Virus record (IMG/VR): IMGVR_UViG_3300020045_005843
Span: 1 to 35,919 of that record
Length of the DNA: 35,919 bases
Direction: 5' to 3' (one strand)
Source of the DNA: a virus
Lineage: Duplodnaviria > Caudoviricetes
Positions 20,235-35,503 of the stretch are shown here, piece after piece. The notes beneath the pieces were generated by a model. It did not search any database and was not told the origin of the DNA. It was given only the letters and a program-made list of their open reading frames with translations. Position 1 is the first letter of the stretch. Each line of letters starts with the position of its first letter. Position numbers and translations under genes: made by a program.

Positions 20235-21725
20235 TCAAAATAAGTCTATGTCTTTCGGTATATGTTTAAAGAACTCACACACGGCGTCAACCGTCCAGCC
20301 GTTGCCGAGCATCTTGTAACGCTGTGAGTTACTCACCCCTGCGGTGTAGTTGTCGGGCAGGGTCTGCAGGCGTTCGCACTCGATAGGTGTTAGCTTACGG
20401 ATATAGCCCTCGATTAATATACCGTGGCGGTCTTGCGCTGTCAGGGTGTAGAACTTAGTCCCATCGTTAAAGCGTTGGCCGTTTTGGCGTTTGTCCACTC
20501 GGTCGGGCGTTATGCAGCCGAAAAGGTGATTATCCTTTAGCACTGTTGTTAATGGTCCGGTTTTCCCATCTGTTCGGGATACGTGTTCTCTGTCTGCGAA
20601 TCTGCCCGTATCAACCCCAGTTCTTTTAAAATTCTCCCTCCTGTCTATTTTTGCCTGCTCTGTTCGCCTAGTCGTGATACACCTTACATCACCAAACAAA
20701 TACTGCCCCATCTTAGCCGCTCCGCCGCCTGCATCGCCGCAAAGCGTTACCGCTTTATCGTGTATGTAGTAAACTCGGTTAGCCTGTGAGTCTTTTCTGA
20801 AATACCCAACTTTACCGCGAGCGACTTCTTTATCTAAGATTTGCAGGGTTTTGTCGAACGGGACTATGTAGCTTTTAAGCTCTTCGAGTATTCTATAGTC
20901 GTATGTCGAGGCAGTTAAACAATTGCACCTGTCCGCCATCTTTCGCCCTCTGCGGGTCTTAGACTCTATGAAAGTTAAGTCCACACCATCACCCTCAAAG
21001 ATTTCAGCGTAACCCTTTTTAGTTGCTTCGGGTATTTTTATGTGGTTCAATTCAGTAGGCACGCTTATCTTTTGGCCCTCGCCTTTATTGGTTGTAAGGC
21101 AGTTTGATTTCAGGTTGTTGACGTTACGGACGTTGCCATTCATACCTTTACCGCTTGGGTTAACATTAAAGTTTGGCGCCCAAACATCAAGTATATCTGT
21201 ATGCTCGTGCACAATGTCTTTCAGCAAAATACCTTTGTCCTCGGGCGGCGTATAGCCGGGTATGTTTGTCCAGTACAACCGCTTACGGCTTTGCGCCGAT
21301 ACAAGCGAACTATTTAGTTGTATAGGCTCAACACCTAAGTAGCTGCTAATTACGTCCTGATATTCTTTTTTCATTGCGACATTTTCAAGGAAAAAATACT
21401 TCGGCTTTATTTCATTTTTAAGCCTCACGAACTCAAAGAACAGTTTACTCCTCGGGTCGTCGAAGTTGAGCTGTTTGCCCGCGAAACTGAAACCCTGACA
21501 AGGCGAACCTCCTATAAGTAAATCAAAACCCCTATATAAATTGCCATCAACTTTAGTAATATCGCCAACGTGTTCAATATCTAAGTGGTTATTTGCCGCT
21601 ACAATCATGGCGTACTTGTCTATCTCTGAGGCGACATACCTATCTATTTTATGCCCGACTTTCTCTAAGGCTTCATAGCCACAAGCCGAGCCATCAAAGG
21701 CGGAAAACACTTTAAGTCCGTTCAT
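20235..21725 (-). CDS. DNA cytosine-5 methyltransferase with an expanded variable region
   Basis: FSAFDG (I), GGSPCQGFS (IV), ENV (VI), QSRKR (VIII), RKLTPIECERLQ (IX), LGNGW (X). Confidence 0.95.
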   Translation of the reverse strand: MNGLKVFSAFDGSACGYEALEKVGHKIDRYVASEIDKYAMIVAANNHLDIEHVGDITKVDGNLYRGFDLLIGGSPCQGFSFAGKQLNFDDPRSKLFFEFVRLKNEIKPKYFFLENVAMKKEYQDVISSYLGVEPIQLNSSLVSAQSRKRLYWTNIPGYTPPEDKGILLKDIVHEHTDILDVWAPNFNVNPSGKGMNGNVRNVNNLKSNCLTTNKGEGQKISVPTELNHIKIPEATKKGYAEIFEGDGVDLTFIESKTRRGRKMADRCNCLTASTYDYRILEELKSYIVPFDKTLQILDKEVARGKVGYFRKDSQANRVYYIHDKAVTLCGDAGGGAAKMGQYLFGDVRCITTRRTEQAKIDRRENFKRTGVDTGRFADREHVSRTDGKTGPLTTVLKDNHLFGCITPDRVDKRQNGQRFNDGTKFYTLTAQDRHGILIEGYIRKLTPIECERLQTLPDNYTAGVSNSQRYKMLGNGWTVDAVCEFFKHIPKDIDLF

Positions 21726-29751: not shown

Positions 29752-30156
29752 CTATTTATGTTTAATTATTAAATCCGTGAGTTGTGAAAGGTAGTCGGTG
29801 AGACTGATGTCTCGGGGGTGTGTCGACGTTTCGAAACAGTGCGCACCATTGCGCATTACGATAGTTGTCATTGTTTCGGTGTCCAGCTCGGCGTAGTAGT
29901 CATAAGCCGTGAATCGGACAAGGCCCTTGCGATTAGAGGAGACGTGCCATTCAGCATCGTCAAACAGCAACCCTATAGGCACGTTAAGCACCTCGGATAG
30001 TTTGGCTATCTGTTCAGAATTAAGAAGCATTTCGCCCCTCATTACACGCCTTACTGCGTGTGCTGCGTCTTTGTTGTCCGGGAAGAGGTGCGCCCCAAGA
30101 TAAGAGGCTTTTAAGTTTGCCGTTTCGGCTATGCGCCTTAAGTCTAATGTTTGCAT
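29752..30156 (-). CDS. XRE/Cro-like HTH transcriptional regulator
   Basis: HTH region ending EQIAKLSEVLNVPIGLLF; first gene after the early promoter. Confidence 0.75.
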   Translation of the reverse strand: MQTLDLRRIAETANLKASYLGAHLFPDNKDAAHAVRRVMRGEMLLNSEQIAKLSEVLNVPIGLLFDDAEWHVSSNRKGLVRFTAYDYYAELDTETMTTIVMRNGAHCFETSTHPRDISLTDYLSQLTDLIIKHK

Positions 30157-30175
30157 GTCTAACTGTTTTGTTTGA

Positions 30176-30205
30176 CAAATGTAGTGCTTTATTTTAATTG
30201 TGCAA
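30176..30205 (-). promoter_or_regulatory. Bacteroidota-type early promoter of the replication operon
   Basis: TTGCA-N17-TACATTTG. Confidence 0.85.
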
Positions 30206-30244
30206 ACTTTTAACGCAAAAAAATTAAAAAATTTAACTAATTTT

Positions 30245-30510
30245 TATTGTTTACGCTTCAAGTTGTTGGTTTTTAGGCATTTAGCCTATTTATTTTAAAA
30301 TTGTAAACGATAAACAATGCGGGTACAGACTTTCCCGTGGGTATATATACGTTTTATGTAATACTATGTAGGTGTTATATTACTTATTTTAATTATTTAA
30401 TAGTTTTGGTATATTATTGTTTATATAGTTTATAAGAGGCTTAGGCGTTGCGGTTGTGGGCTTCGCTCGTAAACCAGCTTTTTTATCTCAGTTTACTCTT
30501 TGTTTATACC
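30245..30510. repeat. Iteron-rich AT element, copy B (candidate origin)
   Basis: TTGTAAACGATAAACAATGCG, TATATTATTGTTTATAT and CGTAAACCAGCTTT are shared with copy A. Confidence 0.75.
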
Positions 30511-30514
30511 CAAT

Positions 30515-30536
30515 AAAAAACCCGCCGAAGCGGGTT
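30515..30536 (-). terminator. Intrinsic terminator with UUCG loop
   Basis: AACCCGC-TTCG-GCGGGTTTTTT. Confidence 0.9.
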
Positions 30537-30541
30537 AGGTT

Positions 30542-30619
30542 TTAATATCTAAAAATGTTTTTCTGATTTCCAAATAGGTAAAAAGAGATTGCGTCGTAGA
30601 ATTTTTCGAAATTTTTCAT
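30542..30619 (-). CDS. 25-aa peptide MKNFEKFYDAISFYLFGNQKNIFRY (absent from the ORF track)
   Basis: AT-rich start region (AAACTTAAACTTATG); lies between a sigma-54 box and a terminator. Confidence 0.6.
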   Translation of the reverse strand: MKNFEKFYDAISFYLFGNQKNIFRY

Positions 30620-30643
30620 AAGTTTAAGTTTTTCTTTTATTAA

Positions 30644-30660
30644 TGCAAAACTCGTGCCAA
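30644..30660 (-). promoter_or_regulatory. Sigma-54 (-24/-12) promoter
   Basis: TTGGCACGAGTTTTGCA is an exact match to YTGGCACGRNNNTTGCW; intergenic. Confidence 0.75.
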
Positions 30661-30666
30661 AAACTT

Positions 30667-30834
30667 CTATTTTTTTAGCTTATGTGCAAATAATTGTATA
30701 ACAAAACTTACCGGAACTATTCGGGCCACTAATCGCAGGATAAACCCGGCGTTAGTCGTTGATTTTGAATTGGCATACGCCGTGGCGGCTTCCTGCAGGC
30801 CGTTATTAATCACGTCAGGGGTTTGTTTTTTCAT
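30667..30834 (-). CDS. 55-aa protein with cationic hydrophobic C-terminus; candidate lysis accessory (absent from the ORF track)
   Basis: MKKQTPDV...GFILRLVARIVPVSFVIQLFAHKLKK; ATG 3 nt after the endolysin stop. Confidence 0.75.
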   Translation of the reverse strand: MKKQTPDVINNGLQEAATAYANSKSTTNAGFILRLVARIVPVSFVIQLFAHKLKK

Positions 30835-30837
30835 TAT

Positions 30838-31428
30838 TTAGATTTTTAGTATTAATTTCCACTTTTTCAGGCACTCTGCCCGGTGGGTGTACCCATTGGC
30901 GTCACCCTCTTTGGTTGTTTGCCTACCGATGTTGATTTGGTCGCTAACAGCGTCAAGATCGTCAAGATCGGAGTATCTGTTGAGGTTGTTGTCCTGCCAA
31001 TAGACGAGGGCATCGATGACGGCGTTAGCCTCTTCGATTATTAGGTCGGGGTTGGCAACAAAGTCCACGCCTGTAACCTCTGAAAGTCTGGTGTAGCCGT
31101 CTTTAAAAGTTCGCTGAATAAGCCCCCCGCCTCGGTACTTGTAGCCGTCCCCCGTTGAGGGGTCGCCGTTTCCGCCCCGGTTGGCGTAAACGTAGTTTGC
31201 GCAGTGCTCCGAGTTCCTGAGGTAAGTCCTAACGAACGAATCAGATTTGTTTTTAAAGGGCGTGTAGAACGCGGCACGTAGGCTGTCAATCGACTTAAAG
31301 TAAAGGCTTTCCCTTTTGGGCTTTAACCCGCTTTCCGCCTCGATTTGAGCCATAAAATGCGCCGTTCTTAACGAGGTGTCAACTCCGAAACGGGAGAATA
31401 AACTTTTATATTTTTCGTATAGCTGCAT
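30838..31428 (-). CDS. Endolysin, glycoside hydrolase family 19
   Basis: AHFMAQIEAESG, YANRGGNG, GDGYKYRGGGLIQ, IN.G...NG...R motifs. Confidence 0.9.
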   Translation of the reverse strand: MQLYEKYKSLFSRFGVDTSLRTAHFMAQIEAESGLKPKRESLYFKSIDSLRAAFYTPFKNKSDSFVRTYLRNSEHCANYVYANRGGNGDPSTGDGYKYRGGGLIQRTFKDGYTRLSEVTGVDFVANPDLIIEEANAVIDALVYWQDNNLNRYSDLDDLDAVSDQINIGRQTTKEGDANGYTHRAECLKKWKLILKI

Positions 31429-31712
31429 TATCGCCTAGTTTTTCTTTCTTCGTTCATAACTCTTTCGCCTGCCATATCAACTTTTAACTGGTTTAGACTT
31501 TCTGAAATTCTGTCCAGTTTAAAGTCGAATTTCGAAAACCCCGCCTTACTTTCGTCATTGGCTTTTTCGAGCGTAGTTATTCGCTGGTTATATTCGGTTT
31601 GGGTAGATTTTACATTAATGTACCCGCCTATCACCGTCAACAACACAGCCACTAAGGCTATGATGTTTGAGGTGGATAATTTCAATTTTTGTTCGGTGTC
31701 TGGGGTTTGCAT
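31428..31712 (-). CDS. Putative holin/antiholin (one TM plus coiled coil)
   Basis: IIALVAVLLTVIGGYI; coupled to the endolysin. Confidence 0.6.
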   Translation of the reverse strand: MQTPDTEQKLKLSTSNIIALVAVLLTVIGGYINVKSTQTEYNQRITTLEKANDESKAGFSKFDFKLDRISESLNQLKVDMAGERVMNEERKTRR

Positions 31713-31994: not shown

Positions 31995-32246
31995 TTAAAC
32001 GATTTTAAACACTTTTTTAAACGCTTCAATCAGTTTCTGCCAAAGACTTTTCTTTTTCTCGACTATCGGCTTTGGCGGTTCGATAGGGATTTCATATTTC
32101 GGAACAGACAGCACAGGATTTTTTTTAGGTACAGGAATCTGCAACTCGACTAATTGACTACCGACCGTGTAATTATCATGACCTGAAGCAACGATATTGC
32201 TTTGAGCAAAAATAATTGTGCTGAATAATAGGATTAGGTATTTCAC
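31995..32246 (-). CDS. Small secreted protein: signal peptide, Pro-rich linker, cationic amphipathic C-terminal helix
   Basis: MKYLILLFSTIIFA|Q ... KKKSLWQKLIEAFKKVFKIV. Confidence 0.7.
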   Translation of the reverse strand: MKYLILLFSTIIFAQSNIVASGHDNYTVGSQLVELQIPVPKKNPVLSVPKYEIPIEPPKPIVEKKKSLWQKLIEAFKKVFKIV

Positions 32247-35200
32247 GGTGTAATTGTAAAATCATAAGAAACCGCACCTGTCAATCCTGTCGAAACTACA
32301 ATATCAAAAGTAGTAGTTGTTTTGTTTTGCACCGAAAATAGAACAGCAGACAATGTATTAGTTGCTACTGGAACTGCTACATAATTAGTATTAGCCATTG
32401 TTTGACCTATCGGAACTGTAAAGCTGGTCGATGCGGTAGCAGTGGTTGAATACGTGCCTTTGAAAGTTGATCCAACGAAAGTTCCGCTAAAATTGCCTAT
32501 AAAAGTACCCTCTATTTGCTTGTCTGTATTCTGAACAATATTACCCGAAGCATTAGTTGACCAAAGCGAAGTTTCATCGATATACCAAATATCCGTACCT
32601 ATTTTTGTTAATTCAAAAGAACTTCCAAATCTCACAACATAGACTAAACTGGTAATTCCTGTAAAAGTAACTCCGCTACTTGGCGACAATGTCACATATC
32701 CCGCATTTCCTAAACTACAATTGATTCTTATTTTTGTACCAATTTGAAAAGGCACGGTTGAGTTATCAGGAACGATTACCGAGAAATTTTGATTAAAAGT
32801 TCCGTTGGTTGTAATTCTTGCGTTCGAATCAGATAACAGCAAAGTATATGGGCTTTGACCAGAACTTAACGAAACTTCTGAACCATAAACTGCACTTGCA
32901 ACAGAAGCAGTAGAGGTTTGAACAAAAGCAGTGTTGGCAATCGTGCCGTTATTTGTTCCAACAGGTTGTGTCGGTACTGTGCTTGTCTGCTCCACTTCAT
33001 CAGTAGTAGCGTTATAGGTCAAAAACAAGTAACTTCCTGCGCTGATTGTTGGGGTTGTGGTTAGTTTTAAAGTTCCGTAAATGGACGGACTGTATAGGCT
33101 TGGGTTTTTTGACTGTTGAAAACCATTGTTAAATTCACTTGAAATTATTTTAGCGATTGTCATATTCGAAATTCCACTCAAATCAGAATGCGGGTGCAAA
33201 TTATCTGGACAAAAGAAATTCAATCTGCTGTCTTTGTGAATCCAAGTGCCTACAGGATATATAAGAGATTCATCGGTATTTGTTAAAACTTGGTGCGGAT
33301 TAGCATAAGTTATGTAATCCGAATACGTCCAGTTTCTTTGCGGACTATAATCATTAGTTGAAAAAGTACCACCCCCTAAATCTGTAAAAGTATATCCGCT
33401 ATTTTGCCAAATGTAACTTGAGTTCCAATAACCTTGAGTGTTAATTGAAATCGAGTTTATCGTCATTAAATCAGCCAAAGAAACTAATGGTATTTGCCAA
33501 TAATCGGCTATTTTTCTCTGTGTATCGTATAACTTATCTAAATCAGGCTCCCCTTTTCTGTAATGCGTAATCATTACTATTTTGTTACGTGGGTCGGATT
33601 CGTAAATTTTTCTAATAATATAATTCATCGCTCCCGTATAGTACATTCTTTCAGTCGCAGAACCTTGCGCAGGAATATCTTGACCATCACTCATTGCAAT
33701 TTTAAACATATCGTTAAACCCGTGGTCTAATACGAATATTTTAGCTCCATCATTAGTTAAGTAATTTGCAATCAGCTTTCTTTCAAAAGAATAATCTCGA
33801 AGTTGCTCTTTTGTTTTTGGACAAGTTGAAGTCAAGCTTCCAGCATCTTGAAATTTAGTATAAATAGTCGCCCAGTTGTCAAAGATATAATCCTTTTCAG
33901 CTATTGTTTGAGATAAAGAGGAGTAAAAGCCAAAACTACCTTGTATGTTATTTCCAATACCTAAAGGGTCTGTCCCAGCATCATAAGCAGATGGTATTCC
34001 AGTTGAAATCCTCGAACCCCCAACACCCTCGTTAGATACGGTTGCACCTGTCAATTGAGCCACCATAGACGGGTACTTGTTTTGTCCAGTATAACCGTCA
34101 ATCGTAACACTATCAGGAGTTCCAGTAGGTATCGAAGTTCCAAACCAAGCAATATTTTGTCCTTTGAACGGTTGCGCTAATTTTTGTAAATTGTAATTAT
34201 CCGAATCACTAGAAATTATCTTTTCAAAAAATATATCAATATCTCCGCCATAACTTGCGCAATAAACGAACAAGGTTTCGCTGGTCGCCACTGCTGTTAA
34301 ATCAACAATATATTCAGTACCGACTACTGTTTCTAAATTAGTCCAAATACTTTGTTGATTGTTGTCCGCTGGTAAAGCATCTCTTAACTGAACGGTAAAA
34401 AAACCCGCTGCATTCCCAACATCGTTAGTTTTCATTTTAAACCTAAATCGATAAGAGTTACCAATTACCAAAGGTTCGGTCAAGGGTATCTTTAAATTAT
34501 CGTAAAGTACAATATCAGTTGGATTAATTGACATTATATCAACATAAGAAGTAGTTGAGTTTGGTTTTAAATAATCAGGTAATTGAGTCGTGTCTATCTC
34601 TGAATCTGAATTCAATCCAGCTATCCCGTTTGACGTGTTTTTGGCATTATTTACACCGTCAACAGTAACATACTTCAATCCCGTACCATCGATAGCTAAT
34701 GAGTTTTGTTTATTCGCTTTAACTTCATATTCTCCCGCCAAAACCGTAAAAGGCACTGGCAAAACTGTGCGAACTGGCGAACTTCCTCCAATTTGCAATT
34801 GATAAACAGGGTCTGAACCGCCAGCAATACGGTTAGCATAAGTTTTTGTAACAATTCTATCAGTCAAGGAAAATGCGCCATTATCCCAAACACCCGAAGC
34901 TGAAAATTCCGCATAAGTGCCGTTAACAACCTCTCCGCTTATACTAGAGGTACAAATCAAAGTTTCAGTTCCAACACTATCTCGGTGGTAAACTTCAAAG
35001 TAAAATTGTGCTGTCCCAGATCCGCTTACTTTTCGAATATTGCCGTAAGTCGTAACGTTAAAAACCCCAGGATTACCAGTTAGAACTCCAGCATCCGAAA
35101 TCCTTTGAGAAATCAATTGTGCCGTGCCTGTGATCGCCGGTGTAGATACGTTAACCGCTGTAGAATTATATCTTGGGTCGTGAATATCCTTGACCAAAAC

Positions 35201-35503
35201 TACATATCCACTCACGTCGCTCGTTATGGTTGTTGGATATAATGTTAAGTTGGCGGGTAGGTCTGAAATGTTTAGTTTTTTGTTAAGCGAATCTTGAACC
35301 GCAATCGAAACGGGTAAAGCCGTAGATGGAACCATTTTTACAAACGAATCAGAACCGTCATAAACCATTACGCTGTCCTCAACAGAACCTGTTGGAGGCA
35401 CTTTTAATAGTTTTATGTAGTTCAGGTTATTTGATGGCGAATACTGGGCATTTACTCCAATGCCTACAAACAACAATGTCAGAAATAAAATCAGTTTTTT
35501 CAT
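32243..35503 (-). CDS. Tail-fibre/spike-like protein with signal peptide and SGNH hydrolase domain
   Basis: MKKLILFLTLLFVGIGVNA|Q; SGNH blocks FGTSI, GVGGS, DHGFND, DNLHP; fibre repeat PTQPVGTNNGTIANTAFVQ; fibre-type domain YTLLLSD...VP.N..VPFQIGT.I...LTKIGTDIW. Confidence 0.85.
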   Translation of the reverse strand: MKKLILFLTLLFVGIGVNAQYSPSNNLNYIKLLKVPPTGSVEDSVMVYDGSDSFVKMVPSTALPVSIAVQDSLNKKLNISDLPANLTLYPTTITSDVSGYVVLVKDIHDPRYNSTAVNVSTPAITGTAQLISQRISDAGVLTGNPGVFNVTTYGNIRKVSGSGTAQFYFEVYHRDSVGTETLICTSSISGEVVNGTYAEFSASGVWDNGAFSLTDRIVTKTYANRIAGGSDPVYQLQIGGSSPVRTVLPVPFTVLAGEYEVKANKQNSLAIDGTGLKYVTVDGVNNAKNTSNGIAGLNSDSEIDTTQLPDYLKPNSTTSYVDIMSINPTDIVLYDNLKIPLTEPLVIGNSYRFRFKMKTNDVGNAAGFFTVQLRDALPADNNQQSIWTNLETVVGTEYIVDLTAVATSETLFVYCASYGGDIDIFFEKIISSDSDNYNLQKLAQPFKGQNIAWFGTSIPTGTPDSVTIDGYTGQNKYPSMVAQLTGATVSNEGVGGSRISTGIPSAYDAGTDPLGIGNNIQGSFGFYSSLSQTIAEKDYIFDNWATIYTKFQDAGSLTSTCPKTKEQLRDYSFERKLIANYLTNDGAKIFVLDHGFNDMFKIAMSDGQDIPAQGSATERMYYTGAMNYIIRKIYESDPRNKIVMITHYRKGEPDLDKLYDTQRKIADYWQIPLVSLADLMTINSISINTQGYWNSSYIWQNSGYTFTDLGGGTFSTNDYSPQRNWTYSDYITYANPHQVLTNTDESLIYPVGTWIHKDSRLNFFCPDNLHPHSDLSGISNMTIAKIISSEFNNGFQQSKNPSLYSPSIYGTLKLTTTPTISAGSYLFLTYNATTDEVEQTSTVPTQPVGTNNGTIANTAFVQTSTASVASAVYGSEVSLSSGQSPYTLLLSDSNARITTNGTFNQNFSVIVPDNSTVPFQIGTKIRINCSLGNAGYVTLSPSSGVTFTGITSLVYVVRFGSSFELTKIGTDIWYIDETSLWSTNASGNIVQNTDKQIEGTFIGNFSGTFVGSTFKGTYSTTATASTSFTVPIGQTMANTNYVAVPVATNTLSAVLFSVQNKTTTTFDIVVSTGLTGAVSYDFTITP
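34658..35323. repeat. Direct repeat copy 2 of the ~666-bp coding module
   Basis: See 119..784. Confidence 0.95.

Follow-up and report, generated by a model that had tools for sequence, protein, structure and literature searches.

What does a predicted sigma-54 promoter do at the end of a phage lysis cassette, in front of a gene for 25 amino acids? We addressed this question in a stretch of 35,919 nucleotides (here called the window), which is an entire viral record from a contig that may still be incomplete. An earlier note on this DNA had described an exact -24/-12 box 6 nt after the last lysis gene, a leader of about 14 nt, a 25-aa open reading frame (ORF), and a UUCG terminator 5 nt past its stop codon, and all four elements were confirmed in our analysis. 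Promoters of this class are hardly known from phages. In freely accessible text, that is, outside subscription papers such as the original genome paper of phage 11b, our literature searches returned no description of the peptide family that this gene belongs to and no natural phage gene under sigma-54 control.

The main genes of the window all lie on the minus strand and follow one another as structural genes, tail genes, holin, endolysin, a 55-aa gene, the microprotein cassette, an AT-rich intergenic block, and replication genes. For the polymerase and the endolysin, the closest named relatives are phages that infect Flavobacteriaceae, namely Croceibacter phage P2559Y (53%) and Olleya and Cellulophaga phages (46%). 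Gene starts in the window lack Shine-Dalgarno sequences, and several have the box TAnnTTTG, given as the Bacteroidota sigma-A consensus in the accessible portion of PMC9723704. Because of these relatives, these starts, and these Bacteroidota-type sigma-A boxes, we infer that the host is probably a flavobacterium. A PHROGs scan of 43 ORFs from this possibly incomplete contig matched no integrase, and expression of the microprotein from a prophage is therefore not indicated. The window also carries a DNA methyltransferase gene (20235-21725, minus strand) and a 1,086-aa probable tail protein gene with a phrog_11541 domain in its middle (32243-35503, minus strand).

The lysis cassette, likewise on the minus strand, contains a probable holin (31428-31712; phrog_1296, E = 2e-5) and a GH19 endolysin (30838-31428; phrog_181), both recognized by PHROGs matches, and ends with a 55-aa basic gene that has no family name and is the upstream neighbor of the box (30667-30834). 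The product of this last gene, with a net charge of +6 and relatives in 11 further viral loci, is a candidate outer-membrane-disrupting lysis accessory. In three other loci (L002, L296, and L303), a different basic gene of 51 to 53 aa occupies its place.

The sigma-54 box itself (TTGGCACGAGTTTTGCA) occupies positions 30644 to 30660 of the minus strand and is an exact consensus match of the form TTGGCACG-N4-TTGCA, with GG at 30658/30657 and GC at 30646/30645 in exact spacing. It begins 6 nt past the stop of the 55-aa gene (30834-30667), and the predicted +1 is position 30633. The window has a single exact match to the -24/-12 consensus, and none of 100 dinucleotide shuffles has any; when one mismatch is tolerated, matches turn up in 33 of the 100 shuffles and the window gains no second site. 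Together with the pairing counts and the uniqueness of the site in boxed records described below, these shuffles rule out a chance origin of the box. The predicted 14-nt leader (30620-30633, minus strand) is A-rich and, as is typical of Bacteroidota, has no Shine-Dalgarno sequence; it carries A at -6, -12, and -13 and C at -3, a position at which A is a positive determinant according to the available text of PMC6847099. In our judgment, this box quite probably functions as a sigma-54 promoter.

The gene behind this predicted promoter (MKNFEKFYDAISFYLFGNQKNIFRY; 30542-30619, minus strand) encodes a 25-aa microprotein with the motif [LI][YF]xxIS[FW]xL[FY]G. A box-blind pattern built from two peptides matched 84 stretches in a scan of viral contigs, 33 of which proved to be in-frame members of 22 to 30 aa. 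Members scored 44 to 63 bits against the family profile, compared to less than 18 bits for the other in-frame pattern matches (L240, L249, L251, and L286), which were excluded. The family thus defined comprises 35 loci encoding 22 to 30 aa, with exactly 25 aa in 22 of the 35 (window and L004 included). Searching 1.8 billion proteins with a profile yielded 29 matches, made up of 25 short motif proteins, two scaffold fragments, and two repeat artifacts (P0015 and P0025) that were removed, and one of 22 matches in a metagenome scan was a family member. Gene 8 of Flavobacterium phage 11b (PHG11b_8; YP_112484.1) is one of the 35 loci and is also among the profile matches. Its product is 58% identical to the window peptide over 24 residues, with the same 25-aa frame starting from an internal ATG, but it is annotated as 38 aa without function and lies in an early-type region with a sigma-A box and without a sigma-54 box.

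Substitution patterns show that the family evolves under protein-level selection. Among 32 distinct cores, pS was 0.70 versus a pN of 0.27, a difference partly forced by the search pattern; at the six positions left free by the pattern, the values were 0.67 and 0.36, and for the peptide genes of the window and L246 they were 0.71 and 0.16. A serine is conserved in all 32 cores, by TCN codons in 21 and AGY codons in 11, at a position where the pattern also permitted Thr, Cys, Trp, or Arg. Of 15 close pairs, pN was below pS in 10 and above it in 4, and one pair was identical; the four exceptions all fall in the L273 group, in which the microprotein ORF overlaps the next gene. The 25-aa gene is almost certainly real, as the earlier note had supposed in naming a small amphipathic peptide as the product of the locus.

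The members share a conserved N-terminal helix and L[FY]GG, followed by a variable tail whose last residue is aromatic in 24 of 35. They are cationic (net charge +2 to +5) and moderately amphipathic, with hydrophobic moments of 0.27 to 0.59 (median, 0.44); the moment of the window peptide, 0.40, is borderline (shuffle P = 0.07). None of the 35 has a transmembrane segment above the threshold of 1.6, the best 17-residue hydropathy being 1.02, and the family thus lacks the membrane-spanning helix of a holin or type I toxin. No signal peptide was found in the family. The second glycine is replaced by N or S in 4 of 32 cores, including that of the window (GN), and by D, T, or N in further matches, unlike the invariant GG, GA, or GS of double-glycine leader precursors. 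Searches of Pfam with 32 members gave nothing below E = 0.09, the two members scanned against PHROGs had no match, and the best ESM Atlas score was 0.87, to clusters without names. A likeness in the PDB to the helix after Walker A of Rad50 (E = 0.1) was weak and was set aside as a generic helix-cap pattern. The earlier note had also proposed looking for the peptide in Flavobacteriia chromosomes, where it did not turn up: 401 Flavobacteriaceae genomes gave three weak matches and no member ORF, a loose-threshold search of five genomes found no chromosomal copy, and there was no member among 76 box-plus-motif matches in bacterial genome contigs (best, 18.9 bits).

Comparison with close relatives points to box and ORF being a mobile accessory insertion. 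In L001 and L003, the 55-aa gene is followed directly by the terminator, with neither box nor ORF between them; relative to these two, the window carries an insertion of about 110 nt with imprecise ends (30550-30662, minus strand). At the same site, L002 has another small basic gene without a box. The occupant in L004 is a diverged box with a 22-aa ORF, a homologue of the window's. No box was found within 230 nt after the 55-aa neighbor in 13 loci. GC content is 0.37 in the segment from 30001 to 31000, compared to about 0.45.

The intrinsic terminator (30515-30536, minus strand) consists of a stem-loop with a UUCG loop (30536-30519), placed 5 nt past the microprotein stop codon, and a U run. 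Its stem matches that of the boxed copies L296 and L303, and a DNA search against named phages gave matches limited to the terminator region (32 nt, in Klebsiella phages). Relatives without box and ORF have a terminator at the equivalent position, where it ends the late/lysis operon. By this comparison, the position of the terminator seems to belong to the end of the lysis operon instead of being dedicated to the microprotein gene. The description of the locus as a self-contained unit is therefore only partly right: box and ORF appear to have been inserted together, but a terminator is also present at this position in relatives that lack the cassette. Phage morons, of the HK97 gp15 type, are accessory genes with their own promoter inserted between genes that are adjacent in relatives. 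The window gene resembles them in its place between such genes, its own predicted promoter, and its lower GC content, and differs from them in that its promoter is of the sigma-54 type instead of sigma-70 and in that the terminator position apparently predates the insertion.

Beyond the cassette lie an intergenic block and the first early gene, which encodes 134 aa (together 29752-30511, minus strand, as delimited by comparison with relatives). The early gene is common to four relatives at 65 to 70% and has a Bacteroidota-type sigma-A -7 box (TACATTTG) 19 nt before its ATG. The AT-rich block (30157-30511), likely an operator or origin, is kept in the four relatives with 72% column identity. 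Since it is conserved with or without the cassette, we find no tie between the cassette and the adjacent origin or early promoter, a connection that had been suggested earlier. Repeated TGTTTA(C/T) and ATAAACA half-sites are visible within the block.

Across the family, box and ORF travel together in unrelated phages. A box of the form TTTGGCACG-N4-TTG stands 21 to 33 nt before the start in 7 of the 35 copies and in one metagenome copy; before the seven family copies other than the window's, the -24 element is identical and the spacer varied. The box-blind member set is boxed in 5 of 33 cases, whereas only 2 of 540 other ORF starts in the member loci are boxed, both by those same boxes. When the two elements were set 7 bases apart as a spacing control, 51 chance matches included no members, compared to 6 boxed member contigs among 52 at the correct spacing. 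When only the consensus and an ATG were required, the 121 loci obtained from 6 of 64 parts of the collection included no member. TTGGCAY-N5-TTG is a single site in each of three boxed records and is absent from both cassette-less records. On a peptide tree of 26 columns, on which gains and losses of the box are indistinguishable, boxed peptides are spread over three or more lineages, and every one of these also has unboxed sisters. A single clade of boxed copies was rejected (AU P = 1.4e-4; at least three changes), and the box label was not significantly clustered (72 of 500 shuffles). A box-like site also lies 36 nt upstream of the peptide in L264 and L284, inside a small ORF and with its first T changed; it was not counted and is possibly a decayed or incipient box.

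The copies differ in where they lie. Fourteen are in or beside lysis cassettes, with an endolysin within two genes upstream in 12 and two further cases probable, and 21 of the 35 are elsewhere, in early or replication regions. Boxes are found in 7 of the 14 lysis-cassette loci versus 0 of the 21 others, although these loci are not independent. Several unboxed copies overlap the endolysin stop. A sigma-A box stands right before 3 of the 35 copies, and none was found within 70 nt of the lysis-cassette copies. The neighboring holins and endolysins are unrelated (phrog_181, phrog_7, and phrog_17001), and lysis-cassette copies often adjoin spanin-like lipoprotein genes. Two different copies share one contig (L282 and L297), one at lysis and the other elsewhere, and one copy directly precedes an anti-restriction gene. 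No transporter or peptidase was noted among the 128 neighbors listed, of which 26 were scanned. At L273:3069-3503 and L315:3069-3503 (minus strand), the box straddles the endolysin stop and would also drive an overlapping lipoprotein gene downstream.

A working box needs a host with sigma-54 and an activator, and we used Flavobacteriaceae genomes as stand-ins for the host. All 61 genomes have rpoN, and all five searched for GAFTGA-type activators have them, with 3 to 6 full-length activator domains each. The 43 window ORFs scanned against PHROGs include no sigma-54 activator, as had been observed earlier, and we predict that the activator of the box would be the host's; with 3 to 6 activators in each host-family genome, the missing phage activator is no objection. 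One activator without an N-terminal sensor domain is present in all 41 Flavobacteriaceae genomes compared (L634-L663); it is PspF-like and has an extra conserved helical segment between the AAA+ and HTH domains.

Host promoters offer two comparisons with the phage boxes. TGGCAY-N5-TTG precedes dnaK in 29 of 30 genomes, mostly with TTGA or TTGT, and the -12 variants TTGC, TTGA, and TTGT are common to phage boxes and host dnaK boxes; since the host dnaK boxes use them, phage boxes with a -12 element other than GC are valid forms in Flavobacteriaceae. On a matrix built from the 29 dnaK boxes, the phage boxes score -1.5 to 7.6 (window, -1.5) versus 14.7 to 29.4, because their spacer differs. That spacer is closer to the box of an exported-protein gene than to the dnaK class: a box of the phage form stands before an exported-protein gene in all five host-family genomes, and these genes look like homologues (L624-L628 and L630; kinship judged by eye). 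The strongest -24 element is present in all eight boxed copies; the 20.6 Mb of five host-family genomes contain it only seven times. In the accessible portion of PMC9723704, sigma-54 promoters of F. psychrophilum drive genes for chaperones, Lon, ClpB, Skp, a rhomboid protease, and gliding and are induced by osmotic and other stress, in agreement with the available text of PMC12316311. The phage box has the same -24/-12 elements and spacing as the flavobacterial (SM4) promoters described there (PMC9723704), from which it differs in preceding a microprotein gene on a phage and in a spacer unlike that of the dnaK class. The earlier note had named envelope stress and nitrogen status as host signals that the phage might couple to; envelope or protein-quality stress fits both this literature and the dnaK boxes, and nothing points to nitrogen.

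The reading that we prefer, with a probability of roughly 0.4, is that a mobile gene with a sigma-54 box encodes a host-directed amphipathic peptide that blunts a stress response or a linked defense. In this reading, the inserted accessory gene lies between the final lysis gene and the terminator of the lysis operon with an exact sigma-54 box in front of it, and the host's sigma-54 polymerase and activator would switch it on under envelope or protein-folding stress. Late-operon read-through would also express it, since no terminator lies between the lysis genes and the microprotein gene. Activation would need no phage enhancer, because the box stands behind unrelated upstream genes; the DNA upstream of it is lysis coding sequence and differs among the boxed lineages. 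The product would bind a host component as an amphipathic helix. A host target is suggested because the family adjoins unrelated holins and endolysins, occurs in early operons, and recurs inside head scaffolds (see below), and these early, lysis, and scaffold settings suggest that the target would matter throughout infection. A promoter of the chaperone/envelope class would raise the peptide just as the host mounts its stress response. The effect, a damping of host stress or defense, is the weakest step of the proposal. Pairing of the box more than once with one microprotein family in unrelated phages suggests that the phage senses the stress state of its host.

A functional analogy is provided by the E. 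coli PspF-PspA loop, in which a sigma-54 envelope-stress promoter drives an amphipathic helical product. Shared with it are the sigma-54 box, the amphipathic helix, and, in the host family, a PspF-like sensor-less activator. PspA, by comparison, is about 10 times longer and chromosomal, and we found no sequence likeness.

Several observations stand against the preferred reading. With 28 of 35 copies unboxed, sigma-54 control is dispensable; phage boxes score low on the dnaK-trained matrix; the amphipathic moment of the window peptide is borderline; and four close pairs have a pN above pS. The confinement of boxed copies to lysis cassettes and the overlap of unboxed copies with the endolysin stop favor a role in lysis, such as the earlier note had considered. 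The peptide would then be a membrane-binding helix that tunes lysis, as an antiholin-like brake or a disruptin-like outer-membrane helper, and the box would add dose under envelope stress. Such a role accounts for the 14 copies in or beside lysis cassettes, all seven boxed ones included, for the translational coupling of some copies to the endolysin, and for a net charge of +2 to +5 with a median hydrophobic moment of 0.44. Disruptin gp28 of phage phiKT is reportedly a small lysis-cassette protein that is cationic and amphipathic, and a helix of that kind is what the family has. However, the microprotein is half the length of gp28, and a disruptin-like peptide would be expected only in spanin-less lysis cassettes, whereas 21 of the 35 microprotein copies are found elsewhere, three of them right behind sigma-A boxes, and several others have spanin-like neighbors. 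The adjoining holins and endolysins are unrelated, no copy has a transmembrane segment, and accessory genes commonly land at the ends of lysis cassettes, which also counts against a lysis role. With these 21 copies elsewhere, a role specific to lysis is unsupported, and we regard the lysis accessory as possible but doubtful. Doubtful, too, and leaning to unlikely, is a generic early peptide for host takeover or counterdefense, for which the box would be an interchangeable promoter of a gene stranded in a late operon, without stress coupling. Sigma-A boxes do serve family copies elsewhere, the sigma-54 box is present only where the gene sits in a late operon, and the sensor-less activator is found in all 41 host-family genomes compared. 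Many small, ordinary early-type genes of Bacteroidota-type phages, some in tandem, also stand behind such a box (122 loci in 29 of 64 parts of the collection), which may be just a handy host promoter. Yet a sigma-A box would be equally easy to gain and none lies within 70 nt of the lysis-cassette copies, seven of these copies do without any box, and sigma-54 promoters of flavobacteria are condition-induced (PMC9723704).

Two further accounts fare worse. If helix and Gly-Gly formed a site for a protease or conjugating enzyme, the peptide would be a processed precursor or decoy whose output is the variable tail or the cut itself. We consider this very unlikely: the conserved helix, the L[FY]GG, and the variable tail with an aromatic end in 24 of 35 copies would suit it, as would the occurrence of the motif in protease-processed scaffolds, but the second glycine is not invariant (four of the 32 cores, that of the window among them, have N or S), and there is neither a signal peptide nor a transporter or peptidase noted among the 128 listed neighbors. 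Least credible, and to our minds highly improbable, is that the activity resides in the DNA or RNA, as a sigma-54 sink, a roadblock, or the 120-nt RNA raised in the earlier note, and that the ORF is incidental. The strongest -24 element in all eight boxed copies, rare as it is in host-family genomes, would fit a sink, and Rfam gives a weak rsmX match over 30633-30515 (22.2 bits versus a cutoff of 56; E = 0.078). Selection, however, acts on the protein; the predicted transcript does not fold stably outside the terminator (z = -0.57) and has one GGA, where Rsm/Csr small RNAs have several GGA loops and a passing family score. A roadblock would have nothing essential to block, as only the peptide gene and the terminator lie downstream.

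The helix-Gly-Gly motif of the preferred host-directed peptide also recurs inside phage head scaffolds. Extended by GGKKxTPAEF, it occurs once or twice in the acidic, Glu-bounded linker of 22 related proteins, which were chosen by their likeness to the motif region and are not independent. A homologue in Flavobacterium phage immuto_2-6A is encoded between the prohead protease and major capsid genes and bears another insert, also duplicated, at the corresponding position. Scaffolds of T4-like, Flavobacterium-type phages (proteins P0009, P0012, and P0030-P0049; L563:5001-6242) contain swappable, often duplicated inserts of 45 to 60 aa, bounded by Glu sites, in an acidic linker. Single scaffold copies scored E = 0.2 to 0.8 with the whole-family profile and E = 1e-4 to 8e-3 with a subfamily profile that was chosen after the match was seen. 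Because the insert is similar to a degenerate HTH_3 domain as well (E = 0.002, below the cutoff), some of this likeness may reflect a generic helix cap. According to the available text of PMC9026906, the T4 gp22 scaffold is cut by the prohead protease after Glu, at L/I-X-E, with most fragments leaving the head, and IPI illustrates that small head-borne peptides can serve in counterdefense. By this T4 pattern of processing, the scaffold insert would be freed late in the cytoplasm or partly packaged.

A bolder version of the host-directed reading, which we think unlikely, would make the motif a single effector whose target is the sigma-54 envelope/heat-shock circuit and which is deployed in four ways: as a first early gene, as an endolysin-coupled gene, as a sigma-54 feedback brake, and as a protease-released scaffold insert in T4-like phages. 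If it were true, the peptide would be a phage-encoded feedback inhibitor of the sigma-54 regulon, and scaffold linkers would be cargo bays for effector peptides. The family is below the length of standard annotation and nevertheless bears the marks of selection, is present in the cultured phage 11b, and is recurrent in scaffolds. Discovery of its target would expose a conserved flavobacterial weak point or defense and provide a reporter for a little-studied sensor-less activator.

Two minor observations remain. Sigma-54-like boxes stand before a dnaK gene and before tandem small early-type genes in several contigs of Bacteroidota-type phages (L436, L491, L505, L507-L510, and L540). The scaffold gene is annotated as a "DNA polymerase phi-like protein," although it lies between the prohead protease and capsid genes.
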